Positions 1 through 21,364 of a stretch of DNA of 64,000 nt are shown piece by piece (position 1 is the first letter of the stretch; each line of letters starts with the position of its first letter). The stretch spans positions 175,916 through 239,915 of the forward strand of contig CAZCGN010000001.1 of assembly GCA_964498285.1 (NCBI GenBank). The letters are read 5' to 3'. Source of the stretch: an uncultured Methanosarcinales archaeon (lineage in GTDB: Archaea; Nanobdellota; Nanobdellia; Woesearchaeales; GW2011-AR9). The translations under genes were made by a program, and so were the position numbers. The notes below the pieces were generated by a model, which was given only the letters and a program-made list of their open reading frames with translations, did not search any database and was not told the DNA's origin.

Positions 1-2316
1 TCAGGCAAATCTTCTATCTTACTTGCGCTCGAGTTCGGTCTTTTTGGCGCTCTTAGGTCTGATTTAAGCGCAGATGCTCTTTTACGCAAAGGCACTATGA
101 CTGGCTCAGTTGAGCTTTCCTGCGAAATTGAGGGCAAAGAAATTATTCTATTTCGGCCACTCAAAAAAAACACGAATGGCATCAAACAAATGCCTGGACA
201 CATTGTTGTAAATGGCGCAAAAAAAGAGTTAACAGCGCTTGAAATGAAAGCAGAGATTATTGGCCATCTCAAATACCCTAAAGAGTTTATCACAAAATCA
301 AAAAATTATGTATTTAGATACACTGTATATTGCCCGCAAGAAGAGATGAAACGAATCTTGCAGGAGTCACCACAAGAAAGGTTAAACATTTTACGCAAAA
401 TCTTCAACATTGATAAATACAAAACGATCCGCGATAACTTACAGAATTATCTTAAGCAATATAGAAAAGATCTTCTAGTCCTTGAAACTAAAATTGAACC
501 ACTTGAAGGGTTGAAAAAGAACGTTCTTGAAATTGAGCAAAGAATAGATGCAACAGAAAAAGAACTTACCATAAAATTTGTAGAAAAACAAGCAATTGAA
601 AAGAAAGTTAACCTCTCTTACAAGATCTTTGAAAATGAACAGCGAGAACAAGCGTACTCTAAAGAGGTTCACCAAAAATCTGAGCAACTTATACAACTGA
701 ATAAAGAAATAAGAATATTACTCTCAAAAAAGCAAGAAAGAGCAAACCTTGCAAAATCAAAACTACAAGAGATACTTGTTGACAGCTCCCTTACAAAAGA
801 AAAAATTGAAGAAGAGTTAGCATCTCTTAGAGAAAAAAAGGTTGAATGGCTCAAAAAGCAATCTGAAGCGAAAACAAAGCTTGCTGCTCTGCAAGAAAGA
901 ATTTCTATACTTCATAAAGAAATTTCTCAAAAAGAGGATGTTGAAAATGAACATAATACTCTTGTAGAAAAACAGAAAGAACTCCAGAAGAATATTGCTC
1001 ACAAAAGTATTCTTCTGCAGGAAAAAGAGAATCTTACAAAAGAGATCTCAAAGTTAGACAGGGACTTATCTGAGAAAAATGCTTTATCCAAGAATGCTCA
1101 AACTATTTTAAAGGGCATTTCATCGCTTGAGAACTGCCCAACCTGCTTACAAATTGTAGGAAATGAACATAAAGAAGGTGTGTGTAGAAAAGAAGAGGAG
1201 AAGATCGAGAATCTTACTTGCGAAATTGAAATCATACAAGTTTCTAAGAATAATACAAATCACGAGCTTAAACATATTCTTGAAAGAATTGAGAAAATTG
1301 AGTTAGAAGAAAGGAAACAACATGAAGTTATTGCAAGACTTTCTACTCTTCAAGAAAAACTTTCATCGTTTGATCTCAAATCTCAAGAGATGAGAGAAAA
1401 CGTACAAAAAAACAACGAAATTATGGCTCAAATTAAGATTCTGAATCAAGATGGAGAAACAACAATTCCACGAATTGAGCAAAGAATTGAAACTCTTCAA
1501 GATTTCATGATCAAACTTGCACAGAAAAAAGAGTTAGAACTTTCGTATGAGAGATCTGTTACAGAGATTGAGGAGTTGAAATTGCGAGAAGAAAGGTATT
1601 GTGAGCGATTAGAAACAGTTCAAAAAATACTCTCTCTTTTTGAGAATAATACCTCCTATATCCTCAAGGCAAAAGAGATGCTTTCAGCCTCTCAAGAAAA
1701 AGAAAAAAGCCTCCTCTCAGAACACTCTGCACTCCTCTCAACACATAAGCATATTAAAGCTAGATTTGAAGAACTATCTCAAGAAGTGAAACGATTAGAG
1801 CTTCTTGCATCCACACTTCTTCAAAAACGCGAATTATATCGCTGGCTCAATTCTTTTTTCATGAAGCTTACCTACACTATTGAAAAAGAAGTTCTCTTAC
1901 GTATCTACCATAGGTTCAATGATCTTTTTACAGAATGGTTCGCATTATTGATGGATGAGAGTGGCATCTCATCAAGACTAGATGATGCATTCACTCCAGT
2001 AATTGAACAAAATGGTCATGAGATTGATTTTGCGCATTTGAGTGGAGGTGAGAGAACCGCAGTCTCTTTAGCGTATCGTTTGGCACTCAACAAAGTTATT
2101 AATGATGTGGTTCACACGATTACAACAAAGAATGTGTTGATATTAGATGAGCCAACAGACGGATTTTCATCTGAACAACTAGATAAAGTTCGAGATGTGT
2201 TGGATCGGTTGAATTTAGGACAGATTCTGATTGTCTCGCATGAAACTAAAATTGAAAGTTTTGTTGAAAATATTATTCGAGTAGAAAAAGTTGATCATGT
2301 GAGCAGAGTGTTTTAA
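1..2316 (+). CDS. rad50: Rad50/SbcC-family DNA double-strand break repair ATPase (5' end truncated by window edge)
   Basis: Frame 1 is open from nt 1 and encodes SGKSSILLALEFGLFGAL (Walker A GKSS) ahead of the first Met at 97. Long coiled-coil with a central CPTC zinc-hook (nt ~1133-1144). C-terminal signature LSGGERTAVSLAYRLAL followed by Walker B/D-loop LILDEPTDGFS. Confidence 0.8.
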   Translation, partial: SGKSSILLALEFGLFGALRSDLSADALLRKGTMTGSVELSCEIEGKEIILFRPLKKNTNGIKQMPGHIVVNGAKKELTALEMKAEIIGHLKYPKEFITKSKNYVFRYTVYCPQEEMKRILQESPQERLNILRKIFNIDKYKTIRDNLQNYLKQYRKDLLVLETKIEPLEGLKKNVLEIEQRIDATEKELTIKFVEKQAIEKKVNLSYKIFENEQREQAYSKEVHQKSEQLIQLNKEIRILLSKKQERANLAKSKLQEILVDSSLTKEKIEEELASLREKKVEWLKKQSEAKTKLAALQERISILHKEISQKEDVENEHNTLVEKQKELQKNIAHKSILLQEKENLTKEISKLDRDLSEKNALSKNAQTILKGISSLENCPTCLQIVGNEHKEGVCRKEEEKIENLTCEIEIIQVSKNNTNHELKHILERIEKIELEERKQHEVIARLSTLQEKLSSFDLKSQEMRENVQKNNEIMAQIKILNQDGETTIPRIEQRIETLQDFMIKLAQKKELELSYERSVTEIEELKLREERYCERLETVQKILSLFENNTSYILKAKEMLSASQEKEKSLLSEHSALLSTHKHIKARFEELSQEVKRLELLASTLLQKRELYRWLNSFFMKLTYTIEKEVLLRIYHRFNDLFTEWFALLMDESGISSRLDDAFTPVIEQNGHEIDFAHLSGGERTAVSLAYRLALNKVINDVVHTITTKNVLILDEPTDGFSSEQLDKVRDVLDRLNLGQILIVSHETKIESFVENIIRVEKVDHVSRVF

Positions 2317-4641: not shown

Positions 4642-7134
4642 TCACATAAACCCCACCAAACCCTTCTGCGCGCCTTTGCCCAATAACTCATCTTCATCCA
4701 CTCCAAACACATCAAAAATTGCTTGAATGGCTGGAAGAACTTGGTGTGTAAGATAGTACTGTGCATCATACTCGCCTTCCTGTATGTCAATTGGAATTTG
4801 AGCACGTTCACGAATGATACCTTTGCCCTTTCCCACAACATACGAGATTATCGTTCCTGCCCCAACTCTGTATCCTGCTTCCTGCATTTTCTGTGCAACT
4901 TTAACATGAGGACCAATTGCTTTGTATTTAGAAAGGTCACGCGTTAATTTAGTTTTAATAATCAACTTTTCTTTTGCAATCCTACCAGACAGTAACTTTT
5001 TAATCATTTTCTGAACATACACTATTGCTTCATCCTTCTTATCAGATAACACAAGGTCAAGAACTTTTGTTTGGATTTCTTTTCCAATTTCTGACCAGTT
5101 ACGTCTCACCGCTGCAAACCCAGTTACTTTTAGATTTCCCTTTGCATCCATTAAGGCATACTTCTTTTTAGCGCCCTTAGTCGTTCCTTTAATTGCAACA
5201 AACAGCGCGCGAGGAAAATAGCCTTCATATTCAAGCTCCATAAGGCCAGGAAGTGTCTTATTGATTTTCTTCATGAAATTCAGAGCATCTTTCTCTTTTT
5301 TTTCTCCTAATACAAAGAACACACTATCAGTATCGCCATATAACACTTCAAATTTTTCTTTTTTTGCTTTTGCAATAGTTTGCTTGATGTAATTACGTGC
5401 ATACGCCGTTGTGGACGCTGCACTTTCAAACGAGTACCATCGTGCACCATAGAACGCCAAATATCCATAAAATGAATTTGCTAAGATCTTAAACGCGTAA
5501 CTTCGCGCTTCTAAATAGTCAGTCTTCTTCCCCTTCTTTTTATGTTCTTTAATTTCTTGCTTAATCTTTGATCGTTTGGTAATAATATCGGCTAAGATTT
5601 CTGGTAAGAAGGCTGGCGTATCCGAAAACCAATATTGCTTTCGTTCTGGAACAGATATCTTCTTCCCGCCAGTAGCTTTAAATGATTCGGGACTCAAATT
5701 ATGAGAACTTATAATTGTTGGGTACAATGATCTAAAATCAAACACAACTACATCTTTGTACAATCCTGGTTTTGGTGAGTAGACAAACGCTCCTTGAATA
5801 CTTTCATTCATTCGTTCTCGAATTTCATCATCATCAGGCTTGTTTGGAGCAAGAACAGTACGCTCTATTGCACGTCTCAGAATATAACTCTCAACTAATC
5901 GTGAAAAACGCATACGTGACACATCGAATGCTGGAAGGCCAACGGTTTTTGTAAACTCAATTATATCAAATAACAGTAATGTACATAGATCAAATGTAAG
6001 ATGAGCATCCTCCAAGTTATACTTACAAAAATCTTCCAATTTCGCAGCATTATTTGAATCCCAAGATGGTGCAAGTTCTTCAAGATTCACAACATGCTTT
6101 TTGGAGCCCAATAATTCATGTGCTACATTATCAAGTTTGAAGCTATCTGTCTTTAGGTTTTGCCCAAAAATGTAACGAACAAATTTGAACACATCTAAAT
6201 GCAATGTGCCAACTATTTTTGTTTCAGCAGGACGCCCACCTTGACGTTTACGTGCAAAAAGGTTTTCGCCTCGCACGCCAAGGTCTAATTTGACATCAAG
6301 CAAACGTGCACGCGTACTAATATAGGGGAAATCAAACCCATCTGTGAAATAGCCAGTAATGATATCTGGAGAGAGTTTTTTCACAAATGTAACAAATGCC
6401 TCAAGCATTTCCTTTTCTGTTGTAAACTGTTCAATATATGTTTGTGCATGTTTAAATTTTTTCCAAGTAAACACCTTACGATAGGTTTTTGATCTTTTTT
6501 TCCCATACAACCCAATCATCAAAATTGGATTTTTCTCAGGATTAATCTCTCGTTTTTTTGCATACGTTTCAATATCAACTGCAAGAATGTTGTATCTTCC
6601 TGAATCATTAACATCTTTTTGAGTCAGTTTACTTGCTTGAAACACAGGGATTCTAAGATGGGCATCTTCTGTGAACTCGCCTTGAGCTTCAATAAGAGTC
6701 ATTGGCGTTATTTGCAGATCACGCAAGTATCTGTGAACAAAAAGAATATCTCTTTCATAACACGTAACACCCCAACTTTCAATTTCTTTAGCAAGGGCAG
6801 GAACCGCCTTAGGATAATTTGCAGAAATCTTGTAGAATTCTTGTGATTTTCCAAGCAATTCCTTTGTAACCTTTCCAAACGAAAGAACTTTAGCTTTATA
6901 GCTTTTTGTTGAAACTTCAAGGCCTTTAAGTTTTTCTTCAAACTTTGATTTTGCAACACCCTTAGTTGTTGCATAAAAAATGGGGACATGTTCATGAACT
7001 ACACAAATCTTTTTTCCGTTCGTATCACGACCATATGAATATACATACGTGTGAAGGTTGCCATTTGAATCTTCTTCTACTTTATATTCAAAATCATAGG
7101 GGTAAAATAAGAGCCGCGTCATACGAGGTTTCAA
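4642..7134 (-). CDS. polB: Family B DNA polymerase
   Basis: 830 aa. Exo I motif in ILAVDIETYA, pol motif A DFRSLYPTIISSHNLSPE and motif C VLYGDTDSVFF. Motifs are contiguous and length is normal, so no intein. Confidence 0.9.
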   Translation of the reverse strand: MKPRMTRLLFYPYDFEYKVEEDSNGNLHTYVYSYGRDTNGKKICVVHEHVPIFYATTKGVAKSKFEEKLKGLEVSTKSYKAKVLSFGKVTKELLGKSQEFYKISANYPKAVPALAKEIESWGVTCYERDILFVHRYLRDLQITPMTLIEAQGEFTEDAHLRIPVFQASKLTQKDVNDSGRYNILAVDIETYAKKREINPEKNPILMIGLYGKKRSKTYRKVFTWKKFKHAQTYIEQFTTEKEMLEAFVTFVKKLSPDIITGYFTDGFDFPYISTRARLLDVKLDLGVRGENLFARKRQGGRPAETKIVGTLHLDVFKFVRYIFGQNLKTDSFKLDNVAHELLGSKKHVVNLEELAPSWDSNNAAKLEDFCKYNLEDAHLTFDLCTLLLFDIIEFTKTVGLPAFDVSRMRFSRLVESYILRRAIERTVLAPNKPDDDEIRERMNESIQGAFVYSPKPGLYKDVVVFDFRSLYPTIISSHNLSPESFKATGGKKISVPERKQYWFSDTPAFLPEILADIITKRSKIKQEIKEHKKKGKKTDYLEARSYAFKILANSFYGYLAFYGARWYSFESAASTTAYARNYIKQTIAKAKKEKFEVLYGDTDSVFFVLGEKKEKDALNFMKKINKTLPGLMELEYEGYFPRALFVAIKGTTKGAKKKYALMDAKGNLKVTGFAAVRRNWSEIGKEIQTKVLDLVLSDKKDEAIVYVQKMIKKLLSGRIAKEKLIIKTKLTRDLSKYKAIGPHVKVAQKMQEAGYRVGAGTIISYVVGKGKGIIRERAQIPIDIQEGEYDAQYYLTHQVLPAIQAIFDVFGVDEDELLGKGAQKGLVGFM

Positions 7135-7180
7135 GAATTGTGGATATATAAAGGTTGTGTGGAGTTGTCAAGTGGGTATA

Positions 7181-7714
7181 TTACGGCCTTCGCCTCAATG
7201 ACTTAATCAAATAATTATCATCTTCATCTTTTTCCATGACAACTTCGCTTTCTTCACCATCAACTTCTACGACTTCTTTTTCTTCTTCCTCAACATTTAA
7301 CCCTTCAGTATTTGCAGTTATCTGGATAAATGCATCTTCCATTGTCGGTTCATCAAGTTCTTGTGGTGCCCACTCTAATGTAAGTCCATCATTTTCCTTT
7401 CGAGGGACTACATGCATAGAAAAGTGAGGAATACTTTGCCCTGCAGCTAACCCATTTTGTACAAATACATTTGTTCCAGTAGCTCCAAGGCCATCAAACA
7501 CAGACATTCCAATTTTGTTTACGATATCTGTCATTTTAACAAGCAATGTATGTGGAATCATCTCTAAGATAGTATGATGTTCTTTTGGGATGATGGTAAT
7601 CTGCCCATCGTTGAACGCCATATACGAGACAAATGCAACCACTTCTTTGTCTTGATAGATAATTTGGGCAGGCTCTCTTCCTGCTACAATATCACAATAG
7701 TCGCATGTTGCCAT
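7181..7714 (-). CDS. HIT-family (histidine triad) protein with acidic C-terminal tail
   Basis: CDYCDIVAG N-terminal motif and histidine triad PHFSMHVVPR. C-terminus EEEEKEVVEVDGEESEVVMEKDEDD. Confidence 0.7.
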   Translation of the reverse strand: MATCDYCDIVAGREPAQIIYQDKEVVAFVSYMAFNDGQITIIPKEHHTILEMIPHTLLVKMTDIVNKIGMSVFDGLGATGTNVFVQNGLAAGQSIPHFSMHVVPRKENDGLTLEWAPQELDEPTMEDAFIQITANTEGLNVEEEEKEVVEVDGEESEVVMEKDEDDNYLIKSLRRRP

Positions 7715-8481
7715 TATTTGAATAAATTTGCAATGTCATCTAAACTTGCATCAACCTCATCTTCGTTTTCATCTTGCTCAGGTTCTTCATCATCTGTTTC
7801 GTCGTCTGATTCGTCAGTATCATCTTCTACTTCATCATCCCCTTCAATATCAGCATCTTCTCCTAACTCGCTAGATTCATCTTCAGGTTCTTCTATTTCT
7901 TCTTCAGGCTCATCTTCCTCTACTTCTGGTTCTTCTTCTACAGCGCGAGGAAGCGTTTGTTGTGTTTCAATTCCCATAAGCCCCTTGAAATGATTCTGAA
8001 CTTTTGTAAGAACTTGTTTTTGAACTTCTAAATTAACACCTTTCTCTTCAAGTTGGAACAAGCCATCAGCATCTTTTCGAGGGATGAGATGTATCATAAA
8101 ATGTGGCGCCCTCTGTCCTGCTGCAAGACCATTTGCTATGAAAATATTCGTACCACCTGCTCGAAGACTTTTGAGCAGAATTTTAGAAAGAACTTTTGTT
8201 GTAACAAATAATTTCTCAAGTGTAGGGTCCGGTATTTGTGGCATAATACTAAAGTGCTCTTTAGGAATGATTAAACAATGCCCCTTAGTTGCGGGTCTAA
8301 TATCTAAGACAACAAGGCACGTTTCATCTTCATAGACTTTTTTAGAAGGAACTTTGCCATCAATTATTTGGCAGAAAATACATTGTTGCCGTTGAAGTTG
8401 CGCAATCTCCTCTGGAGACATATTTTTGAGCTTTTCTTCAAGCTCTTTACGCTGCTCTGGCGTTAGTTGTGAAGGATCCAT
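7714..8481 (-). CDS. HIT-family protein paralogue with long polyacidic tail
   Basis: CIFCQIIDGKVP and APHFMIHLIPRK histidine triad. About 75-aa Glu/Asp-rich C-terminal tail. Start overlaps the stop of the downstream HIT gene by 1 nt. Confidence 0.7.
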   Translation of the reverse strand: MDPSQLTPEQRKELEEKLKNMSPEEIAQLQRQQCIFCQIIDGKVPSKKVYEDETCLVVLDIRPATKGHCLIIPKEHFSIMPQIPDPTLEKLFVTTKVLSKILLKSLRAGGTNIFIANGLAAGQRAPHFMIHLIPRKDADGLFQLEEKGVNLEVQKQVLTKVQNHFKGLMGIETQQTLPRAVEEEPEVEEDEPEEEIEEPEDESSELGEDADIEGDDEVEDDTDESDDETDDEEPEQDENEDEVDASLDDIANLFK

Positions 8482-9227: not shown

Positions 9228-10055
9228 TCACTCTTCTAAGAATTTTTGCACGTTCTTAAAGTGCATTTTTACAAATTGTTTATACGGCAGCTTCCGCCCC
9301 TTAAGCTCATCAAGTGCCCATTTCACATGAGTAGAGCCCTTAGGTACTGCAAATGTTGCTTGCCTTGAAAGAAAGTTAATTTGTTCAAGAGCAGCGGCTC
9401 GAGCCAAGATTGATGCTGCTGCCACCTCAACAAACTTCTGCTCAGCCTTCGTTTCGCGAATATCACCCACACTACAACCAGGGTACTTATCTACTGCATG
9501 AACGCCTGGTTTAAGGTACTTTGCAGCTTTTTTGTGTAATTTGTTAAGAAGCTGCGTTACACCTTTCTCTTTATTATACTTAATTGGAGGTAGACTTATA
9601 ATTTGACACTCCGCTACTTTTTTTACTTCTTGTGCCATCCGCAGTATCTCTTTATCAGCAAGTGCCTTGCTATCTGCAACGCCAATATCAAGAAGTTTTG
9701 TTCGAATCTCATCATTTGCTTTAACAGCAGCAACTACAAGCCCACCAAACGTATCGCCCTTGAGGGATTCGTCTGAACCAATTACCCATCCACGCTCTTT
9801 TCTAAACGTGATTGGTGTAACTTTTGTTCCTATACCAAAACTATGCAACTGAGCTGAGGTTTTATCAATAGCTCCCGAATCTCCTTGTAGAAGTAGTTTC
9901 CCGGAGTTATAGAGAATCATGAGTACTCGTTTTTTAATTCCCTTAAAGAAACGAGCCTTTTCGTGTACCGTTCGAATTTCAAGTGTTTTGAATTTATGCT
10001 TAGAGCAAAACCGCGCAAGATCTTCTACATCAACCTCTGTAAAGACTACCATCAA
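9228..10055 (-). CDS. RNase HIII-like ribonuclease H (RNase H2 superfamily) with N-terminal extension
   Basis: IGSDESLKGDTFGGLVVAAV matches the RNase HIII catalytic motif GSDEVGKGDYFGPLVVAA rather than the RNase HII DEAGRGP motif. A downstream ADSK motif is present, and the ~80-aa N-terminal domain is consistent with the HIII TBP-like domain. Confidence 0.5.
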   Translation of the reverse strand: MMVVFTEVDVEDLARFCSKHKFKTLEIRTVHEKARFFKGIKKRVLMILYNSGKLLLQGDSGAIDKTSAQLHSFGIGTKVTPITFRKERGWVIGSDESLKGDTFGGLVVAAVKANDEIRTKLLDIGVADSKALADKEILRMAQEVKKVAECQIISLPPIKYNKEKGVTQLLNKLHKKAAKYLKPGVHAVDKYPGCSVGDIRETKAEQKFVEVAAASILARAAALEQINFLSRQATFAVPKGSTHVKWALDELKGRKLPYKQFVKMHFKNVQKFLEE

Positions 10056-10099: not shown

Positions 10100-10492
10100 C
10101 TAAAGCAATTCTCCTATCGCTGCAACAAATTTTCGAGTGGCATTCATTTGCAAAGGATGACCATATACTGTTGAATCTATATGTGCATCATAACAGGTCC
10201 CTGACATTGGAAGACCATAGCCCACAATTCTTGCTCCAGCATATTTTGCTCGTAACACCCCCCACACATTAAACGTTGTTGGGTTGAGAACTAAAGAAAA
10301 AGGACCCGGAACATCTCGAAGCTGAGCTTCAAGTAGAGGAGTGATTTCATCTATCCTACCACTCTGCGCAGCAAGAACTTGTACCCCAAAACGAGCATCG
10401 CTTGTTGAAAGAACTTGCTCAATTCCTGCAGTAAGAAGCGCTGCTGCAGTATCTCCTTTCTGACGAACAATAAGAACGTTAGGTAATGGCAT
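10100..10492 (-). CDS. Hypothetical protein (GC-richer than neighbours)
   Basis: 130-aa ORF between the two RNase H genes on the same strand. No motif recognised. Confidence 0.3.
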   Translation of the reverse strand: MPLPNVLIVRQKGDTAAALLTAGIEQVLSTSDARFGVQVLAAQSGRIDEITPLLEAQLRDVPGPFSLVLNPTTFNVWGVLRAKYAGARIVGYGLPMSGTCYDAHIDSTVYGHPLQMNATRKFVAAIGELL

Positions 10493-10504: not shown

Positions 10505-11185
10505 TTATTGATCCTGTTTTAAAAAGTCTCCCATCGTTTTTTGCTTACCTTTCTCAACAGCGTTCTTGTAGCTTTGCCACTCGCACCGAAAGATATGTTT
10601 GAACGTTGCATAATGTTCATTCAAAAAGTTCTGTGTTCGAACATCACTCATATATCCTGAACCAAAATCATGCCCAACTTCTTTTTTGATATGGTCAATT
10701 GCGCGATCACGTATCACTTTTGCAATGATTGATGCTGCAGCAACCACAAAATGGCGCGCATCTGCCTTATGTTCCATAACAACTCTTGTTGAAGAACGAA
10801 CACCATCAGAAAGTCTACTTACAAAATAGTGTTTATAATTTTCAAGATTAATACTTGGACAATCAACAATAACTGTATCAGGATTAAGTTCACTTATCAT
10901 GCGTGCTGAAGTTTCAGCTTCAAGCCAGTTAAGATTCAAATTATTATCGCGCAAAGCATGGTCAATTGCATCTGCCTCAATTACTTCTACTCGAAAATCC
11001 TCAACTATTTCGTGGATCCTATCAAACATCTCTTCACGCGCTTCTCGAGAAAGTAGCTTACTATCTTTCACGCCAAGCCATTCTAACTGTTTATCTTGCT
11101 CTGGTGTTGCAACTAGTGCTACCATTACGAGTGGACCAATGACGCAACCCCGACCAGCTTCATCAATTCCTGCTTTAAGACCCAT
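10505..11185 (-). CDS. rnhB: Ribonuclease HII
   Basis: GIDEAGRGCVIGPLVMVAL catalytic motif and GVKDSKLLS. 226 aa, typical for archaeal RNase HII. Confidence 0.85.
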   Translation of the reverse strand: MGLKAGIDEAGRGCVIGPLVMVALVATPEQDKQLEWLGVKDSKLLSREAREEMFDRIHEIVEDFRVEVIEADAIDHALRDNNLNLNWLEAETSARMISELNPDTVIVDCPSINLENYKHYFVSRLSDGVRSSTRVVMEHKADARHFVVAAASIIAKVIRDRAIDHIKKEVGHDFGSGYMSDVRTQNFLNEHYATFKHIFRCEWQSYKNAVEKGKQKTMGDFLKQDQ

Positions 11186-11231: not shown

Positions 11232-11516
11232 CTACAACCCAAACGCATTTGTGAACTCACGCATTCGCCTAAATTCAGCTAAAAATCCAAGACCTTTATC
11301 AGTTATATGTACTATCTTTGAAGAACTCTTTTTTGTTTTAACTTCTTCAATATGTATCATCTCTTTTGCGAGCAACTCCTCGACATACGAGTTCAACAAC
11401 TTATGTGAAAGGTTTGATTTGTACATGAGGTGCGTGGGCTTAATTTTTCCTCCCTTATTTTGAATTGCAACAAGGATGTCAAAAATAAGTTCCAATCGTG
11501 ATCTACGTCCTGCCAT
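11232..11516 (-). CDS. Small winged-helix DNA-binding protein (putative transcription regulator)
   Basis: 94 aa. ELIFDILVAIQNKGGKIKPTHLMYKSNLS pattern matches archaeal winged-HTH regulators. Confidence 0.4.
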   Translation of the reverse strand: MAGRRSRLELIFDILVAIQNKGGKIKPTHLMYKSNLSHKLLNSYVEELLAKEMIHIEEVKTKKSSSKIVHITDKGLGFLAEFRRMREFTNAFGL

Positions 11517-11519
11517 AAT

Positions 11520-12230
11520 TTACCTTTTTGTTGTTACCAATCTATACACGTACAATATAAGTAGGAATCCTAACAGTAAGAAGGCTTCTCCAAAAAAGTA
11601 GAAGACATCACTTACAAAAAGGAATGTGAAAAAGAGTTGTGCTAAAAGCAAGAACATGAATGCAATCATAACAAGGTATGAATTACTATTTCTATCACTG
11701 TTAAGATAGTTCTTATAATAGTTAAGCACAATAAGTGAAATTAACACAGTCATTGTTAAGGGAAAGACAAAATACTTGAACGTTGCAAGTACTGCAATTA
11801 ATCCCACAAGATACACAAATAAACCAATTTGTGCAAGCTCATGAAATCTATGAAGACGCGCACGCGACTTTTGTGACACCAAAAAAAGCAGTAGAAAGGC
11901 ACCTAGAAAGCTTGCCATCTCTAAGAAGAACCCTCCCCTATAAAAGAGGTCCATGATCGATACTCGAGATTGTGTTACTGGAAGTAAAACTTGATGTGCC
12001 GTTTCACGAAGTGGATGAAAATATAATACTCCAAACGTGATAAGTTTGAAAACAAACGCGCAACTTATCAAGACAAATGCAAAAGAGAAATACTTAAATT
12101 TGTTTTCGGAACTTATCTTGTATACTCGCCAACTGTATCCGGCAATGAGCAATGCTATTACAAGCGCTACAGCATCAAAAATCAAATCAAGTCCGTTGAA
12201 CCAGCTAGGGGTTGTAAACAATGCAAACAT
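11520..12230 (-). CDS. Polytopic membrane protein
   Basis: 236 aa with about 7 hydrophobic helices. No motif recognised. Confidence 0.4.
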   Translation of the reverse strand: MFALFTTPSWFNGLDLIFDAVALVIALLIAGYSWRVYKISSENKFKYFSFAFVLISCAFVFKLITFGVLYFHPLRETAHQVLLPVTQSRVSIMDLFYRGGFFLEMASFLGAFLLLFLVSQKSRARLHRFHELAQIGLFVYLVGLIAVLATFKYFVFPLTMTVLISLIVLNYYKNYLNSDRNSNSYLVMIAFMFLLLAQLFFTFLFVSDVFYFFGEAFLLLGFLLILYVYRLVTTKR

Positions 12231-12496: not shown

Positions 12497-14701
12497 TTAT
12501 TCGAGTGGCACTCCGCTCCATAACGTCCAATCTTCAGAAGGAGTGTATGGTTGGAATGAAAAGTACGGTGGTGCTGTTTGTCCAAAATGATTATACTGTA
12601 CTTGCCCCCAGCGTGTGCTCTCGCCACGTGCGCTTCCAAACGAGCCGGTTGTGCCATACACTGGTGAATCGAATAATCTCCAGGTTTTCATAACCGAATG
12701 AAACCCTCCAAGGTCTGTTGTAAAATCTGCCCCAGGTTCAACAATTAAATCCCCATCATATCCTTCTTCTTTTAAGATTCGAATCATTGCTTTAATTGGT
12801 GCATTTCCTTCACCAGGTGCAAGATGCTCATCTTGATATCCATAATTATCATCTAAATGAACGTGCCCGATCATATCTTCCTTAGCAAGCTTTTTGAGCA
12901 TATCATCACTCCACTGATCAAACGCTTTATGGTTCTCTTCAATGGTTGCTTTAGGATCCCCTTTCCAATATTTTCGCCACATGTTAAAATGGCCCGTATC
13001 AAACGTTATTTTGATCGTATCTTTTGCAAGTTTTCGCGCCTTTTCAACATGCATTCCTCTTTCTTTTTTAAGAACCTCAACCATTTTCTCTCGAGAACCT
13101 TTAATGATTTTAATAATTTCATCTGGATGCGCACCGTACGCTTCAGGAAACAAGTTTTCAAGACCCAAAAACAAGTCTCGCTTAAGTTCACCTTTTTTAC
13201 GTAACTCCTCGTTCTTATCGTGCGCGTACACAGCAGCTCGCGCGTACGAATCATAACTTTCTCGAAGAGCGTATGTCTCAGCGCTTTCAACATGTTTCAT
13301 TGTCTCAACACTTTCCTGAGCCTGTGCCCACTGTGAGGCTGAAGCTTCTTGTGATTGCCGTAATCCTCGTTTAAGAATATCTAACTGGTTTTTGAGAATT
13401 TCATGAGGAAATTTTGCATCGGGAGGTACTAGCCCTGCAAAATCACGATCAACAACTTTTTTGAGTTTCCACTTCTCTTCCTCATCTGTTTCAGCATAAA
13501 TTTGTGTATAGAGTTTGAGTGCTTTTTCTAGCTTTTCTTTCTGCTTAAGTTCATTTTTGAAATCCCGAGTGTACTGTAGAGCCCATCCACGTGCATTCCC
13601 TGCATTCGTTTCTAACGTGTTTAAGATATATGCTTCTTCTGCTCTAACACGTACCTGTTCTTGATCTACTGCCCGACCTTTATCCCTATCATAAAACCGG
13701 TACCATTTACTCTCTTTCCACACTTTCTCACTTGCATTCTTGTTTTTTCGCCAAAATGCCTTTGCTTGATCAGTTAGTTCATCAGCTTCTGTCACTAAAT
13801 CTTTCCACTCCATTTGATGAATCTCAAACTCTCCACCTTCATCGCCAATTTTAGCATTAAACTTTGGAACACGAACTGAAGGATCGATCTTATTTCCCCA
13901 ATAATCTACATAGTCACCCTGATGAACAGTTACTCCATTCTCATCAACATACCAACTTTTTCCCCTACTCTTTTCCATTCCAAGTTCCCACATATCTTCA
14001 TTCTTTTTCTCGAACCGGTTCCACACAGGCCGTGCAACTGATCTTCCTTTTCGCGCTTCAGCAACAAGCCCACCAGTTCTGGTATCAACCACCCTATAAC
14101 TTGCCCTCTCTTCTTCTCCTCTGAACGATTCAAATTTATCTTTCCATTTACCGTCGGTGTTCCATGTTGAATCACTAATTGGCCTATGAAACTCACCAGT
14201 ATGTACTACTACAGGACCACCCCTTCCAACATCAGCTGCAAATTCAATTGCACGCTGGATTTCTTGCATGGAATTCGCTTTTGATTCACGAGAAAAGTTT
14301 CCTTGTCTATCTTGACCTGCAAGACCAAAGACCCCAACAGAAGTGTGCGTTGTAAAATCCATCCTATTTGCAAGGGCTGCTTCACGAAGTGCCTGACGTT
14401 GCTTTTTACCATACATCCCTGCAGTATGACCCTGGCCACCACCCTTACCCATCCCCATAAAGCCAAGTTCTAATTTTTTTGCTCCTGACCGCATTTTAGC
14501 TAAGATTGCAGGAACGTTAGGTACTGGCCCAAGACCAAAACTCATCCCAAAATCGCCAGTAGAAAGTCCTACGCTTCCGGTGTTATGAGAATGGTTATGA
14601 GAAGAATGATCGTGCGTGTCTGATGGCGCTTCAATTGTAGAGTTTGGAGCATACTCTCTATCCATTGCATGAAAATAATTGCCACCACCTGTTTCTACCA
14701 T
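12497..14701 (-). CDS. Xylose-isomerase-like TIM-barrel (AP endonuclease 2 / sugar-phosphate isomerase) protein with very large internal insertion
   Basis: The N-terminal region (KKLELGFMGMG...AADVGRGGPVVVHTGE) and C-terminal region (GHVHLDDNYGYQDEHLAPGEGNAPIKAMIRILKEEGYDGDLIVEP) look like the two halves of a xylose-isomerase-like barrel. They are separated by a ~430-aa K/E/W-rich insertion. His-rich N-terminus HDHSSHNHSHN. Confidence 0.5.
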   Translation of the reverse strand: MVETGGGNYFHAMDREYAPNSTIEAPSDTHDHSSHNHSHNTGSVGLSTGDFGMSFGLGPVPNVPAILAKMRSGAKKLELGFMGMGKGGGQGHTAGMYGKKQRQALREAALANRMDFTTHTSVGVFGLAGQDRQGNFSRESKANSMQEIQRAIEFAADVGRGGPVVVHTGEFHRPISDSTWNTDGKWKDKFESFRGEEERASYRVVDTRTGGLVAEARKGRSVARPVWNRFEKKNEDMWELGMEKSRGKSWYVDENGVTVHQGDYVDYWGNKIDPSVRVPKFNAKIGDEGGEFEIHQMEWKDLVTEADELTDQAKAFWRKNKNASEKVWKESKWYRFYDRDKGRAVDQEQVRVRAEEAYILNTLETNAGNARGWALQYTRDFKNELKQKEKLEKALKLYTQIYAETDEEEKWKLKKVVDRDFAGLVPPDAKFPHEILKNQLDILKRGLRQSQEASASQWAQAQESVETMKHVESAETYALRESYDSYARAAVYAHDKNEELRKKGELKRDLFLGLENLFPEAYGAHPDEIIKIIKGSREKMVEVLKKERGMHVEKARKLAKDTIKITFDTGHFNMWRKYWKGDPKATIEENHKAFDQWSDDMLKKLAKEDMIGHVHLDDNYGYQDEHLAPGEGNAPIKAMIRILKEEGYDGDLIVEPGADFTTDLGGFHSVMKTWRLFDSPVYGTTGSFGSARGESTRWGQVQYNHFGQTAPPYFSFQPYTPSEDWTLWSGVPLE

Positions 14702-14784
14702 TCTAACTTTACGCTTCTTTACTATTTTAGAAGTAATTTAGGTTATATAATTGTTTTGTGTGGTAGCAAACATTCCATGCAGTT

Positions 14785-15678
14785 TTACGCTTCTGTAAAA
14801 AATTCATTTTCTAAAAAGTTTATTGCTTCTGATACTCTTGTTTCTAAACCTGCAACATAATCGTGCCAAGGAACATGAACCGGATCTTCTTCCGTTTGGA
14901 GGTGAGTTGCCAAAAAATCGACATGCCCGCCCCCTACAATCACAGCCTTCTTCCCTTCAAGTTCAGAACTATATGATTTAAGACTTGGTAAGATATACTC
15001 AACATCACGCGCTCTTCGAAGAAATGACCCAAAAGCCCTTCCAACTAAAAGGACTCTTTCTACAAAATCATCTGGAAAAACTCGATCTAACTCACCTATT
15101 GCTAGAGTTACTGTTTCTACCAAGTGGTCGACATCTAACCCAAAATATCCCGAACAGAGATCACTCTTATTCTTCCAATGTCTCCTAATATTCCTCTCAA
15201 AATCAGCAAAGCTTCCTGTATGAAGCGTGTGGAAAGATCTAAAAATATCATATGAGAAAAAAGCATCTGATTCTACTCCCAACCTAGTTGCAAGCACAGG
15301 CAAATTTGTCCTTTCTTCAAGATAATAAACTGTCCCAGTATAAAGCCTTCGAGCTTCCGCCTCAAAATTTCTTCGATGTTCGTCATTTATTGCAACGACT
15401 GTAGCTGAACCTTCCATAAGAAGGTGATCAGAAGACCTAATTTCTCTTCTAAACCGATAATATCTTTGAGAACTTCGTTTGAATTTCGCTTGATGATCCA
15501 CTCCTATTAAAAGAACATCATCTACTCCAACATATCTTGGAAGAGTATTGCCTCGCAGTTTTCTTCTAGTTTGTCCCACACAAGTGCGAAACCAACTGTT
15601 TTTTATAAGAATGTTCCCAACAAACAAAAATTTATAAATTTGCAAAAACCTTGCCCTCTTATGAGTAAAGAACGCCAT
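14785..15678 (-). CDS. Hypothetical protein (start uncertain; overlaps divergent NUDIX gene)
   Basis: 297-aa ORF with no confident motif. Confidence 0.3.
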   Translation of the reverse strand: MAFFTHKRARFLQIYKFLFVGNILIKNSWFRTCVGQTRRKLRGNTLPRYVGVDDVLLIGVDHQAKFKRSSQRYYRFRREIRSSDHLLMEGSATVVAINDEHRRNFEAEARRLYTGTVYYLEERTNLPVLATRLGVESDAFFSYDIFRSFHTLHTGSFADFERNIRRHWKNKSDLCSGYFGLDVDHLVETVTLAIGELDRVFPDDFVERVLLVGRAFGSFLRRARDVEYILPSLKSYSSELEGKKAVIVGGGHVDFLATHLQTEEDPVHVPWHDYVAGLETRVSEAINFLENEFFTEA

Positions 15679-16104
15679 AAAAATGTTCCTGCATGTAACC
15701 TCTTGTTAATTCAGGACAATAAAGTTCTTCTTTTACGACGCGCAAATACTAACCATGAACTTGGAAATTATAGTATGGCAGGAGGGCATGTTGAAAAACA
15801 AGAAACCTTTGTTCAAGCAATGATTCGTGAGGCTAAAGAAGAAGTTGGGATTGATATTCTACCACAAGACCTGCGTATTGTCCACCTTATGCATCGTGGT
15901 TTGAAGCAGAACGACTTCGAGTATGTTAACATCTTTTTTACTGCTACTAAATGGACCGGTAAGATTGTGAATGCCGAACCACATAAATGTGACGATCTTT
16001 CGTGGTTTGACTTAGATAAACTCCCGAACAATACTGTTTCATACATTAGGCAAGCAATAAAGAATGTAAAAGAAAACAGATTATACAGTGAACACGGTTG
16101 GTGA
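15661..16104 (+). CDS. NUDIX hydrolase
   Basis: Nudix box GGHVEKQETFVQAMIREAKEEVGI. The ORF-track start at 15571 would overlap the divergent gene by 108 nt. The internal Met at 15661 (MSKERH) is the more plausible start. Confidence 0.7.
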   Translation: MSKERHKNVPACNLLLIQDNKVLLLRRANTNHELGNYSMAGGHVEKQETFVQAMIREAKEEVGIDILPQDLRIVHLMHRGLKQNDFEYVNIFFTATKWTGKIVNAEPHKCDDLSWFDLDKLPNNTVSYIRQAIKNVKENRLYSEHGW

Positions 16105-16105
16105 A

Positions 16106-16801
16106 CTAATTCTTATCATACCAGTTACTCATATCTTTTTTACCAGGGCTATTTCCATGATACATAATATCTAAACTTTTAGCAATTGCTTGTGATGCAG
16201 ATGCTGCGGATGCAGCTTCTTTTGTCATAGAATAATCGCCTACATCAGCATCTTCAACCTTCTTTTCAATTGCTGAACTAAGCTGCATGAGGCGCTGTTG
16301 TTGTGTTTGAGAGATGTACCCACTCTCTTTTGCAGTATCATACACTTGAACTATTTCTTGATACAAATTTTGCATTGGAACTTGCGAGAGTTCCATGATA
16401 TACGCCGTTTTAAGTGGATCGAATCCAGGATCTATTGCGCCAGGCGGAATCTCAACATCACGAAGACTTTCTTCTAAATCTTCCTCTTTCTTTGTAGATC
16501 CACGGCGCTCTTCTTGCTCACCCAGCTTCTTATCAATCGCTTTTTTCCAGGTACTTGCATCTTCCCCGCGCTGCGCTTTAACAATGATCTTTCCTTCCTC
16601 ACTTAATGTAGAAGTATCGCGCGTTGCAACCTGAGGGATTGGCACTTTATCTTCCCAAGCTTGTTTATCTTTTATCTCATCTTCAGCTTCATGCATAAGG
16701 GCTTCTGCCTCTTGTATCTCCTTTTCACGCTCTTTTTTGAGTTTCTTCAATCGTGTAAGACGTTCTTCTGCCGTGAGATTTTCTACTTCTTCTTTGACCA
16801 T
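16106..16801 (-). CDS. Hypothetical highly charged protein
   Basis: 231 aa with a K/E-rich N-terminal coiled coil. Co-directional with the next gene. Confidence 0.3.
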   Translation of the reverse strand: MVKEEVENLTAEERLTRLKKLKKEREKEIQEAEALMHEAEDEIKDKQAWEDKVPIPQVATRDTSTLSEEGKIIVKAQRGEDASTWKKAIDKKLGEQEERRGSTKKEEDLEESLRDVEIPPGAIDPGFDPLKTAYIMELSQVPMQNLYQEIVQVYDTAKESGYISQTQQQRLMQLSSAIEKKVEDADVGDYSMTKEAASAASASQAIAKSLDIMYHGNSPGKKDMSNWYDKN

Positions 16802-16866: not shown

Positions 16867-18384
16867 TTACCACGTAATCATTCGATGAGCCTTTTTGAAC
16901 GTATGATATACCTGGAACGCTACAAACCCATGAAATTTGAGGGCATTTCCTTGCTTTTTTGGTTGGTATGCTTTAGCTGAAGAGGCCGCCGCTGCACCTT
17001 TCTTTTCAGGAGGGAGAAAATCACCAAACATTTTTCTAAATATACTTTGGTTTGTTTTGCTTTTCGGCGTTTTCTTCTCTTCACCTTTATCTTCTGCTGC
17101 AGCTTTTTTTGCTTGATCTAAGTACTTTTTAAGATCTCCACCAAGAGCATCCATCGATTCTTGGATTGAACCAGAAATATCACCAATGAGCGCGAACACT
17201 TCTTTCTCCTTCAGTTTCTTATAACTCATCACTTGTTCATAGTTCCAATCATAAAGACGTATTTCCATGTCCATCTTTCCAACATGAACAGGCCCGCGCT
17301 GATATCCTTCTTGTACAAATTTCATGTGAGGCCTAGTCCTATAATTAAATGTTACAAGAACACATGTTTGTGAACCCGGATTGTACCCCAAAAACTCAAC
17401 ATCCATCATTGCTCCTTCAAATGATGACACAAGGTCGGCTGAGTCTTGGTGCTTTCCTTTCATACTCAAACGTTGCGCAGTTTTAAGATATGGTTTAATC
17501 CATGTAATATACATCTGGATAATTTCATAATGCTGGTTAAGATAATTGAGCATGAATTCTTTTCGTGTCTCATGTTCTTGATGTGTTCTCTGTTTCCACA
17601 TGGAAAAATGATTCAAATGTCTTTTAAGCACTCTGAGAACCGCATCGTTAAATCCTTTCAAGTTATCTACATACGTTTCAAGTTCGTTTTCTCGTAGTGG
17701 AGGAGTATCAAAAAATAGGTCTGGTAACGTTACAAACTCTAGCTCTCGGGCCATTCCATAGACTGAAGCTGGAGACTTTCCTCCACCTTGCACAAGATCA
17801 ATGAAAATCCCTTTAAGTGTGATTTCATCTTTCTTTCGTCGCTGTTCAATTGGCTTACTAACTTCAGCCTTAGATTTACGATAGTACGCTAACCTCTCAT
17901 CTAGGATTCGCAGTTCACGAATCATTTGAAAGAGTTCTTTGACCATCTTTCCAATTGTTGCAAGATACTGGCCAACTTTATCTTGCTGTATCCCCAATCG
18001 TTGTTGAGTCACGCCAAAAAACGCTGAATTTTCTGAAGCTGAAAAACTATCTTCTAGCTTATCAACTATTGGGAAAAACATACGAAGCGTGTCAAGAACC
18101 CAAAAATAAGGTTCCTCAATACTCAAGTCTGGTACTTGGTACGAAATTCTGTGTTTAAGAAGAGGTGCTGGAAAATCTACTTCAATAAAACTGTATCGTT
18201 GATGTTCTGCCCATTCTTGATGTACTTTTTTGAGCAGTTCCCTATACCTTTTTGGATCTTTAAGCTGTGCTACTCCATTCTCATCATATTTGTAATATTC
18301 ATAGAATGTATCGGTTGCTTTTCCACCTTTGTACATCCCCTTAACAAATCCATGCTCTGCAAGCAGCCTCTTATAATCTACCAT
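16867..18384 (-). CDS. Hypothetical protein
   Basis: 505 aa with no recognisable motif. Lys/Ala-rich C-terminal tail. Confidence 0.3.
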   Translation of the reverse strand: MVDYKRLLAEHGFVKGMYKGGKATDTFYEYYKYDENGVAQLKDPKRYRELLKKVHQEWAEHQRYSFIEVDFPAPLLKHRISYQVPDLSIEEPYFWVLDTLRMFFPIVDKLEDSFSASENSAFFGVTQQRLGIQQDKVGQYLATIGKMVKELFQMIRELRILDERLAYYRKSKAEVSKPIEQRRKKDEITLKGIFIDLVQGGGKSPASVYGMARELEFVTLPDLFFDTPPLRENELETYVDNLKGFNDAVLRVLKRHLNHFSMWKQRTHQEHETRKEFMLNYLNQHYEIIQMYITWIKPYLKTAQRLSMKGKHQDSADLVSSFEGAMMDVEFLGYNPGSQTCVLVTFNYRTRPHMKFVQEGYQRGPVHVGKMDMEIRLYDWNYEQVMSYKKLKEKEVFALIGDISGSIQESMDALGGDLKKYLDQAKKAAAEDKGEEKKTPKSKTNQSIFRKMFGDFLPPEKKGAAAASSAKAYQPKKQGNALKFHGFVAFQVYHTFKKAHRMITW

Positions 18385-19831: not shown

Positions 19832-21364
19832 TCACATCCCAATTCCGACAAACTCTGTTTCAACAGAATTAGATGGTCTTTCTTCCTTCCTTTTCTTCAC
19901 AAACTCAGAAAATAATGGAATCTTTAATGGCACTGCAAACCGAGTAAAGGTGGAGGTAAGCAAAGCTTCACCCTTATCCAAACTTGCAATGGTTCTGCTA
20001 TCAGAACTTAGATCCTGCGCAGCACTCTCGATAACTGCTGTGCGTTCTGAGGACATTTCCATCCCCAAAATGATTTTTGTGTTCATATTTGCTAGGATAT
20101 TTTTTGGAATCTCGGAAGGAAGTTGCGTGATTGCAACTAATCCTATTTGAAATTTACGTCCTTCACGTGCGATCGTATCAAACACATTTGTTCCTTGCTC
20201 TAACACTTTTTTACCCAAAACACGTGGCGCTTCTTCAAGAACAATACTGATAACCGGTTTCTGAGACAAAACTCCTTGCTTTTTATAATAACGATACTTC
20301 TTGAGTGCTTCGGTTGCAATCATAGAACCAATCATCACTTCCAAGGCTCCCGCAAAATAGCTAGTATCAACAATAACAGTTTTTCCTTGTTCTAATTCAC
20401 GACAAATGTCATTAATTGTGTTCTCTCCGGCATGCATATCAAATATTCCTTGTGTTGTAAGCTGTCCATTTTGCAACTCAAGTTGCAACAACGAAATTAA
20501 TTTCCGTTTGACAACAGCGATCGTATCTTCATGGAACCTGATCCCTTCAATTCTTCGTTCTGCAATAAGTGATTCAATCCAGTTTGTTCCAAAGATTTTG
20601 TGGTACACATGTAAACACTGGCGCTGCGGATCTGAAAGTGTAATTGCACCAGAAAAATATTCTGGTTTGAGCGTATGCAAATGAATTTTGAGTGTTCGTG
20701 CGCCTGGTGGAGGTGACGCTGGTGTGTAATACACAACATTGCTCCTTGAAGGATGGTCTTTAAGGCCTAAACCAGTTCTTCCGTAATACTCATCATGTGG
20801 GTCTAAAACAAGCATACCCACATATTCTTTGTCCAAAGAATCCCACAAAATTGTTGACATTAAATTTGATTTTCCTTTCCCAGTTGATGCTGGAATAAGA
20901 ACATGATGAGAAAATACTTCTCGTCCAGGTAGATATATGTCAAAGTCAAGTACTTGTGAGCCTGACCGAAGATTCCCTGTATACAACGGATTCTGAGGTG
21001 TTGTAATAAATGAACAGTCTTCTTTTGTAAGAGCCCTAACATGTGAAAAAAAGGTTGGCAACTTTTTACACGTTGCACTTTTTTTACCCAACGTAAGGAT
21101 TGGTTTTAAGTATGCTAAAGAATAATTACGTAATTTCTGATCAACTATTGAAAAAGAGGTATCTTCTTCTAAATTTAGGCCAGAGACCATTTCAAGATTT
21201 TGCTGACTTATTTGCGATGCGTACACCAAATCAAATACTTGTAGAAGAACTTTTTGTTCTTGCTCTTCGATCACAAGAAGTTCACCCAACTCAACGTATT
21301 CATCTGATTTCACACGCACTATAATTTTGCTAAAATCTCCACCAATAACCTGCCCCTTAATCAT
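19832..21364 (-). CDS. HerA/DUF87-family P-loop ATPase
   Basis: HAS-barrel-like N-terminus ([15 protein letters not shown]), Walker [23 protein letters not shown] (the DUF87 DPHGEY motif), [15 protein letters not shown] and NTKIILGM. No NurA-like gene adjacent. Confidence 0.7.

Follow-up and report, generated by a model that had tools for sequence, protein, structure and literature searches.

The window, by which we mean the whole 64,000-nucleotide stretch of archaeal DNA analysed here, encodes a 734-residue protein that forms, in the predicted structure, one polypeptide with a single xylose isomerase-like barrel, interrupted between β4 and α4 by a large nested domain. We propose that this protein is a multi-metal phosphoesterase of the MJ1311/endonuclease-IV-like branch of the superfamily, in which the insert would act as a lid or assembly domain. 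We put the chance that this composite reading is right at about even, and that estimate covers all of its parts jointly, including the assignment of the barrel to this branch.

One barrel with a nested domain

Both ends of the protein match the Pfam family PF01261 (AP_endonuc_2), in two stretches with E=2.1e-18 and 67.4 bits against a gathering cutoff of 31.1; the best stretch covers residues 555-656, and 42 of 42 diverse members match the same family. In the structure model, four strands precede the insert (residues 51-56, 76-81, 115-120, and 164-167) and four follow it (512-515, 563-568, 611-616, and 652-654), together making the single closed (β/α)8 barrel of the xylose isomerase-like superfamily. 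According to the initial annotation, the two ends of a 734-residue protein look like the halves of a barrel, possibly with a nested domain inserted between them. The minus-strand reading frame is confirmed, its ATG start being backed by an N-terminus, MVxFGxGYxxPMDREY, conserved in 36 homologues, and the model yields one barrel of four plus four strands rather than two unrelated domains (Table 1).

The insertion is smaller than the ~430 residues first suggested. It spans about 300 residues (171-473) in the model, or 340 if the α4-equivalent helix 474-503 is counted, and an insert-only structure model (pLDDT 88.3) divides it into a β-rich lobe and a helical bundle. Its charged, Trp-rich character is as originally described (K 10.9%, E 11.5%, and W 3.8%, whereas residues 1-170 contain 0% W), but the supposedly many WK, WR, and KW dipeptides come down to six WK/KW/WR/RW pairs in the insert and four in the C-terminal part. 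The insert is acidic, with a median pI of 5.6 and a net charge of −5. A basic DNA-binding insert was considered and rejected on the basis of this pI of about 5.6. Searches of Pfam, NCBIfam, PADLOC, and PHROGs with the full-length protein, its insert, and the neighbouring proteins returned PF01261 as the sole family, for the barrel. The insert has no relative in these four collections and no PDB sequence match, whether a single sequence, a family profile, or an insert-deleted construct is used, and Foldseek against viral models gave no match. The early remark that the middle lacks recognisable homology therefore holds.

How widely the insert occurs was assessed across 140 family representatives, taken at the 50%-identity level among the matches listed of about 1000 clusters. 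It is present in all 140, with lengths of 202-346 aa among the full-length members listed. Segments 171-230, 291-310, and 351-473 form a universal core, the first of them occupied in >95% of representatives, with residues 231-290 variable. Conservation within the insert is lowest in the W/K-rich stretch 311-350, which occurs in 6-42% of distant relatives.

An architecture of this kind could also be produced by a chimeric assembly, by a gene-fusion error, or by a mobile element or intein lodged in a normal barrel gene. Nothing speaks for such an origin beyond a slightly raised GC content as a hint. The gene was initially noted as GC-richer than its neighbours, and it is, at 0.422, where 31 ORFs of the window average 0.389 +/- 0.022; the difference is marginal, however, and four other ORFs lie at >=0.42. 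Third-position GC is ordinary (0.307), and a foreign origin was rejected on that ground. The excess falls at codon positions 1 and 2, is strongest in the Gly/Ala-rich N-terminal third, and reflects amino-acid composition. Against an artefact, hundreds of independent assemblies (NCBI, JGI, ENA, and Logan) carry the same uninterrupted ORF, and the architecture recurs in 143 GTDB species and in about 1000 clusters at 50% identity. Family searches found no intein, transposase, or phage family, and column identity within the insert reaches 57-59% among close relatives. With the insert also universal among the representatives, we consider the chance of an artefact negligible. Judged from its sequences, the family occurs throughout Woesearchaeota/Nanoarchaeota and is conserved at the level of a housekeeping gene, with 50-63% identity across the 143 species, similar to RNase HII.

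Table 1. Features of the barrel gene and its upstream neighbours, with positions in the window
Feature	Position	Strand	Remarks
Whole ORF	12497..14701	(-)	734 aa plus stop codon, ATG start; from ORF list
Aromatic C-terminal tail, residues 681-734 (...PPYFSFQPYTPSEDWTLWSGVPLE)	12500..12661	(-)	Conserved; predicted disordered
C-terminal barrel part, residues 474-680	12662..13282	(-)	α4-equivalent helix, then β5-β8; from model, Pfam, and MJ1311 match; contains E515, D568, H571, H615, D618, D624, H626, E655
Insert, helical bundle, residues 300-473	13283..13804	(-)	Includes clade-specific W/K-rich stretch 311-350
Insert, β-rich lobe, residues 171-299	13805..14191	(-)	From insert-only model
N-terminal barrel part, residues 44-170	14192..14572	(-)	β1-β4 and α1-α3; contains H119, H167, E170
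His-rich tract HDHSSHNHSHN, residues 30-40	14582..14614	(-)	Read from translation; length varies
N-terminal peptide, residues 1-17	14651..14701	(-)	Conserved; predicted disordered
Candidate archaeal TATA box (TTATATAA)	14743..14750	(-)	~46 nt upstream of ATG; by eye only
Small charged protein, 231 aa	16106..16801	(-)	Between partner gene and barrel gene
Upstream partner gene, 505-aa protein	16867..18384	(-)	Same strand and upstream in 61-62/86 loci

Metal ligands and the closest relatives of the barrel

The Glu-Asp-His-Glu site that members of the superfamily share is present in the barrel as E515, D568, H615, and E655 at the ends of β5-β8. Two further sets of candidate ligands accompany it: H119 and H167 at the ends of β3 and β4, with E170 adjoining H167 at the end of β4 (conserved in 138/140), and H571 with D624 and H626. 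Conservation among the 140 representatives is high throughout. E515, D568, and H571 are each found in 140/140, H626 in 134, H119 in 131, H615 in 131 (with Q in nine), and H167 in 130; position 624 has D in 105 sequences and H in 34. E655 is off by one column in some rows, and a Glu stands at position 655 or next to it in 140/140. The full ligand pattern is kept in 93 sequences. In a subclade of nine sequences, three ligands have changed together: H119 has become E, H167 a hydrophobic residue, and H615 Q. Such a joint change would be expected of residues that work as a unit in a single site. From the alignments, the five His/Asp ligands beyond the common site appear to match the three-metal pattern of endonuclease IV and MJ1311.

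The comparison with endonuclease IV (Nfo) is firmest in the C-terminal half. When an Nfo sequence checked against PDB 1QTW is used, D568/H571/H615/D624/H626/E655 fall on Nfo D179/H182/H216/D229/H231/E261 in the alignments of both hhalign and MAFFT. Local hhalign and MAFFT are in register only over that half, the N-terminal half being out of register, and H119, H167, and E515 are assigned to Nfo H69, H109, and E145 by strand order in the model alone. The set of Nfo three-zinc ligands, which we take to be H69, H109, E145, D179, H182, H216, D229, H231, and E261 in the numbering of Hosfield et al. 1999, would thus be matched at six positions directly and at three more by strand position. The proteins also differ. 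Nfo has 285 aa against 734 here, its relationship to the present sequence is not significant, and it has no equivalent of the 300-residue acidic insert that, from its place between β4 and α4, would lie on the catalytic face.

MJ1311 of Methanocaldococcus jannaschii (PDB 3WQO, titled 'D-tagatose 3-epimerase-like protein') is the best relative by sequence, with E=6e-8 over β7-β8 (residues 611-655). Its relationship is the closest in both sequence and structure, and the two proteins share the motif HVH-x-DN-GY-xDEHL-x-GEGN, which includes the β7-α7 loop motif DN-GY-xDEHL-x-GEGN. MJ1311 has reportedly kept all nine zinc ligands of endonuclease IV. Significant sequence similarity is nevertheless confined to the C-terminal quarter. 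MJ1311 is a plain 293-aa barrel without the β4-α4 insertion, the conserved N-terminal peptide, or the aromatic C-terminal tail, so the present protein, at 734 aa and with an insert that every representative of its family carries, departs from the compact ~290-aa single-domain form of MJ1311-like barrels. A search with a 55-aa fragment returned no candidates for further MJ1311 relatives.

Apart from MJ1311, the only named sequence matches, in NCBIfam and among PDB sequences, are epimerases and isomerases. One alternative is that the protein isomerises, epimerises, or dehydrates a sugar or sugar phosphate. It would then work with one or two metals bound by the Glu-Asp-His-Glu residues, and the insert would serve as a substrate lid or for oligomerisation. 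The ketose 3-epimerases acting on D-tagatose or D-allulose have the same four-residue site and match weakly over β7-β8, and E515 and E655 are presumably the counterparts of their two catalytic Glu residues. Public databases name the homologues 'sugar phosphate isomerase/epimerase', alongside 'TIM barrel protein' and 'hypothetical protein'; these labels are generic and Pfam-style. NCBIfam gave only far sub-threshold epimerase/isomerase matches (25 bits for a cutoff of 305, and 15 bits for one of 353), which places the protein outside the ketose 3-epimerases (the fructoselysine 3-epimerase model scores 25.4 bits against 305). The five additional near-invariant His/Asp ligands have no counterpart in epimerases. 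In particular, the five-residue loop with D624 and H626, present in MJ1311, is a gap in D-tagatose 3-epimerases, and no sugar-metabolism gene is a conserved neighbour in 86 loci. We regard this alternative as possible, though rather doubtful.

In the explanation that we prefer, the barrel ligands would instead hold a two- or three-metal centre that hydrolyses a phosphoester. Hydrolysis is the most likely chemistry because equivalent ligand sets hold the second and third zinc in endonuclease IV. The β4-α4 loop is replaced by the family-specific domain of a β lobe and a long helical bundle. In every TIM barrel this loop is found on the catalytic face, and the insert may therefore cap or extend the active site, build an assembly, or do both; it may also be a docking domain for a partner. 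The absence of endonuclease IV from the sequence matches weighs against the proposal: at E<=1, NCBIfam gave no endonuclease IV family, PDB sequences searched with phmmer or with profiles gave no endonuclease IV chain, and the E values of hhalign against Nfo, 0.1-0.4, are not significant.

A stronger version of the same idea makes the protein the true AP endonuclease/3'-diesterase of the lineage, that is, a functional endonuclease IV whose insert replaces or supplements the DNA-gripping loops. Nfo recognises DNA through Arg37 and through Tyr72/Leu73, which insert at the lesion. R102 is nearly invariant (136/140) and pairs with Arg37 in a low-confidence hhalign alignment. The residues aligned with Tyr72/Leu73 are V122/G123, and the positions after H119 vary across the family; the DNA-inserting pair does not appear to be conserved. 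MJ1311 itself is said to lack a DNA-binding groove, according to the 2014 structure paper of Uechi et al. The nine-ligand pattern and the housekeeping-level conservation favour such a function, as does the listing of MJ1311 as a predicted endonuclease IV homologue of M. jannaschii (PMC2770678). Set against them are the missing significant match to any endonuclease IV and the acidity of the insert, and we judge a functional endonuclease IV unlikely.

Partner genes, conserved termini, and possible roles

A gene for a ~480-aa protein (505 aa in the window) is linked to the barrel gene. Of all the neighbours, this gene alone persists in four divergent loci (L082, L085, L087, and L088). It adjoins the barrel gene in 61 loci, and also in divergent loci whose barrel protein has an identity of only about 32%. 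This partner has no match in Pfam, NCBIfam, PDB sequences, PADLOC, or PHROGs. Between the two lies the gene for a small charged protein. This gene occurs on the same strand in 63 of 86 loci, its median position being −1.6 kb. In distant loci, a K/E-rich ORF of 149-183 aa without detectable sequence similarity occupies its position. A Pol-β-type nucleotidyltransferase gene lies directly downstream in 5/5 divergent loci. Within the clade of the window, gene order is collinear over >8 kb, so the nearby RNase HII, HIT, and PolB genes say little about function; a role read from them was rejected for this reason.

A conserved partner gene with a small protein gene in between resembles the enzyme-partner-substrate gene sets MbnABC and TglHI. 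The protein could therefore be a multinuclear non-haem iron oxidative enzyme like DUF692/MbnB/TglH that acts with its partner on a peptide or protein. The likeness extends to a multi-metal site and an adjoining partner gene. The structural match is much weaker, however, with hits ranking far below MJ1311, epimerases, and endonuclease IV, and there is no sequence match, the Pfam search having returned no PF05114/DUF692. The DUF692 enzymes also lack a large insertion and have an unrelated partner, and the partner here is unlike anything solved. Moreover, enzymes of this type need O2, and many Woesearchaeota are anaerobes. An oxidative role of this kind seems very improbable.

The termini of the barrel protein may bear on its assembly. 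In an alignment of 36 close homologues, M1, V2, G5, Y9, M13, D14, and R15 are nearly invariant, and residues 1-17 have a pLDDT of about 27-31 in the structure model. The C-terminal tail is likewise poorly modelled (pLDDT 28-39) despite its conservation: residues 701-734 show about 99-100% occupancy and conservation equal to the barrel core among the 140 representatives. The tail is thus likely, from its sequence, to contact a partner or another subunit, and the N-terminal residues are possibly a docking peptide. In our proposal for a hydrolytic barrel, the binding site for both would probably be on a second subunit or on the ~480-aa product of the upstream gene. Inspection by eye revealed no canonical PCNA-binding box in the C-terminal tail.

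The leading, though weakly supported, candidate substrate for the proposed phosphoesterase is an end or lesion in a nucleic acid. The leads towards nucleic acid are the Pol-β-type nucleotidyltransferase gene of the divergent loci and the pairing of R102 with Arg37; the acidic insert, unlike a usual DNA-binding domain, points the other way. More speculatively, the barrel protein, the ~480-aa protein, and the small charged protein might together form a hitherto unrecognised, lineage-wide machine of Nanoarchaeota/Woesearchaeota that processes nucleic-acid ends or lesions with a three-metal centre. The nucleotidyltransferase would join it in divergent lineages, and the insert and termini would serve assembly and substrate handling. 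This elaboration is improbable as a whole. If true, such a machine might take the place of a canonical AP endonuclease or of an end-healing enzyme in these reduced genomes.

The genomes of Woesearchaeota and related archaea are small, and many of their conserved genes lack an assigned function. The present family is large and conserved, no member has been characterised, and we found no literature linking Woesearchaeota or DPANN to a barrel-with-insert family. It joins a well-understood catalytic scaffold to a 300-residue domain without detectable relatives and to a conserved partner that likewise belongs to no known family. If the substrate were identified, a set of core genes in a major uncultured group of archaea would gain a function, and it would become clear how the metal centre of a TIM barrel was adapted through a large loop-to-domain expansion.

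Two minor features lie around the start of the gene. The TATA-like TTATATAA may be a chance occurrence, because the genome is AT-rich. The His-rich N-terminal tract pointed out in the initial annotation is indeed read in the translation (H30-D-H-S-S-H-N-H-S-H39). It occurs in 17 of 36 close relatives against 2 of 140 distant representatives and is a feature of the clade, not of the family.

Architecture and extent of the barrel family

The Pfam family AP_endonuc_2 (PF01261, xylose isomerase-like TIM barrel) matches the barrel protein in two separate stretches (E = 2.1e-18), between which lies the insert. TIM barrels often carry inserted domains. A homology search with the protein returned 293 proteins; the best 120 of these, all ~700 aa, are 50–63% identical along the whole protein, and all derive from Woesearchaeota/Nanoarchaeota assemblies (NCBI, JGI, ENA, and Logan). 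Searching 1.84 billion representatives with a profile gave 996 clusters (50% identity) at E ≤ 1e-3, 374 of them at E ≤ 1e-30, and relatives are encoded in the genomes of 143 GTDB species. Residue and insert conservation was counted in the 140 representatives of at least 540 aa among the best 150 of the 996 clusters. All 140 carry the insert, with lengths of 202–346 aa (median 282). An assembly artefact, named in the initial annotation as an outcome that would undo the split barrel, is refuted by the size of this family and by full-length relatives across independent sources.

The charged, Trp-rich middle described at the outset is real (K 10.9%, E 11.5%, and W 3.8% vs. zero Trp in residues 1–170). 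Insert segments 171–230, 291–310, and 351–473 are universal; segments 231–290 and 311–350 are clade-specific. The W/K-rich stretch first remarked on is residues 311–350, which is present but belongs to a clade-specific segment. The His tract spans H30–H39 and occurs in 17 of 36 close relatives vs. 2 of the 140 distant representatives; it marks the window's clade rather than the whole family. The gene had also seemed GC-richer than its neighbors, a difference that proved marginal (0.422 vs. 0.389 ± 0.022 for 31 window ORFs). The excess is confined to codon positions 1 and 2, third-position GC is ordinary (0.307), and the difference reflects amino acid composition rather than foreign origin.

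The putative metal site and candidate chemistry

E515, D568, and H571 are conserved in 140/140 representatives, D618 in 139, E170 in 138, H626 in 134, H119 and H615 in 131 each, and H167 in 130. At position 624, 105 have Asp and 34 have His, and a Glu lies at or beside position 655 in every representative. E515, D568, H615, and E655 are the superfamily-wide metal site and, judged from sequence, the further conserved His and Asp residues match the endonuclease IV pattern. Both hhalign and, independently, MAFFT placed D568/H571/H615/D624/H626/E655 on D179/H182/H216/D229/H231/E261 of endonuclease IV (Nfo), in a sequence that agrees with 1QTW. H119, H167, and E515 lie at the ends of strands β3, β4, and β5; they correspond to Nfo H69, H109, and E145 by strand order only, since the N-terminal half aligns out of register. 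In one subclade of nine sequences, H119 is replaced by Glu, H167 by a hydrophobic residue, and H615 by Gln, all together, which suggests that these three work as a unit.

The D624/H626-bearing loop is shared with MJ1311. The structure study of MJ1311 by Uechi et al. in 2014 reportedly found all nine endonuclease IV ligands kept, without the DNA-binding groove. MJ1311 is the predicted endonuclease IV homolog of Methanocaldococcus jannaschii (PMC2770678). Our leading interpretation, held with about even confidence, is that the barrel protein is a multi-metal enzyme like MJ1311 and endonuclease IV. The β4–α4 loop, on the catalytic face, would have expanded to form a new domain, a lid or an assembly element, the most likely chemistry would be phosphoester hydrolysis at the multi-metal center, and the enzyme would work together with its upstream partner. 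A sugar isomerase or epimerase with a lid is possible but clearly less probable: an NCBIfam search gave solely epimerase/isomerase matches, all far below threshold, and D-tagatose 3-epimerases have a gap where this family has the D624/H626 loop.

A true AP endonuclease, a specific case of the multi-metal reading, is improbable. Near-invariant R102 pairs with Nfo Arg37, but in a low-confidence alignment; NCBIfam, a PDB-sequence profile search, and hhalign against Nfo gave no significant match to endonuclease IV; and the Nfo Tyr72/Leu73 positions are V122/G123 here, variable across the family. A nucleic acid end or lesion is a lead for the substrate of the multi-metal enzyme because of the ligand pattern, a nucleotidyltransferase neighbor, and the conserved Arg, a lead weakened by the acidic insert and the missing endonuclease IV DNA-contact residues. 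The catalytic scaffold is familiar.

A candidate upstream partner beyond inherited gene order

When ORFs up to 6 kb from the barrel gene were clustered without bias at 86 loci, the ~480-aa partner lay upstream on the same strand in 61 and a ~230-aa charged protein in 63. Downstream were a multi-pass membrane protein (51/86), an HTH_45 protein (46/86), and RNase HII genes (39/86). On a given side, flanking sequence exceeds 5 kb in only ~45–51 of the 84 loci looked at first, so these counts are close to saturation. Synteny with the barrel gene holds for the HIT genes in 18–19 loci and for PolB in 10; gene order in the window's clade is thus collinear over more than 8 kb, to the two HIT genes and PolB, and most of the neighborhood is inherited order rather than evidence of shared function.

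The partner is the exception. It also lies directly upstream in the divergent loci L082, L085, L087, and L088. In the last three, the barrel protein is only ~32% identical, the partner is 31–37% identical (E = 1e-71 to 1e-82), and other neighbors differ. The partner has no family match in Pfam, NCBIfam, PDB (single sequence and profile), PADLOC, or PHROGs; its 1797 homologs are all unnamed Woesearchaeota/Nanoarchaeota proteins, and its C terminus has a conserved ...KKAHRMxxW. A DUF692-like iron oxidase acting with such a partner is very unlikely. A Pol-beta-type nucleotidyltransferase (~270 aa; PF01909/PF18765) lies 4–50 nt 3′ of the barrel gene in 5/5 divergent loci (these four and L086); a search of the 64-kb window turned up no homolog.

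The C-terminal tail 701–734 (...PPYF.F..Y.PSEDWTLWSGVPLE) of the barrel protein matches the barrel core in conservation but is predicted disordered (pLDDT <40), as is the N-terminal peptide MVxFGxGYxxPMDREY. We infer that both would contact a partner or another subunit. The family merits attention because it combines its size and housekeeping-level conservation, in an uncultured archaeal group, with an insert without detectable relatives and a conserved partner without known family.

Local gene content

Features of the barrel-gene region (window coordinates unless a locus is named)
Feature	Coordinates	Strand	Remarks
739-aa protein	97-2316	+	faint Rad50/SbcC Walker B match; flanks region
Family B DNA polymerase, then two tandem HIT-domain genes	4642-8481	-	HIT genes 177 and 255 aa
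RNase HII family, second gene	9228-10055	-	extra N-terminal region, faint DUF3378 (RNase HIII-like) match
ORF between RNase HII-family genes	10100-10492		130 aa; seen only in this genome
RNase HII family, first gene	10505-11185	-	nearly tandem with second
HTH_45 winged-helix protein	11232-11516	-	unusually conserved; 76% mean identity, 48 loci
Multi-pass membrane protein	11520-12230	-	236 aa; always paired with HTH_45 protein; faint MASE3-like match
Barrel gene	12497-14701	-	734 aa; ATG start
ORF without family	14785-15678	-	297 aa; among 86 loci, only in this genome's own
NUDIX gene	15571-16104	+	6/86 loci, at other positions relative to barrel gene
Charged protein	16106-16801	-	231 aa; no known family; conserved upstream across Woesearchaeota
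Partner	16867-18384	-	505 aa; no known family; conserved upstream across Woesearchaeota
HerA-like DUF87 ATPase	19832-21364	-	flanks region
Pol-beta-type nucleotidyltransferase (example)	L086:9333-10136		

The two genes that separate the small charged protein from the barrel gene, the 297-aa ORF and the NUDIX gene, overlap by ~100 nt, so the longer ORF probably starts further downstream. The barrel gene, which is of Woesearchaeota type, and its neighbors also occur on many GTDB contigs titled "uncultured Methanosarcinales archaeon" (loci L008, L010-L012, L014, L017, and others); these titles appear to be placeholders or mistaken taxonomic assignments. One MAG, isolate nzgw59, carries a barrel-gene copy on each of two separate contigs (L015 and L076), which could reflect a paralog, strain heterogeneity, or contamination.
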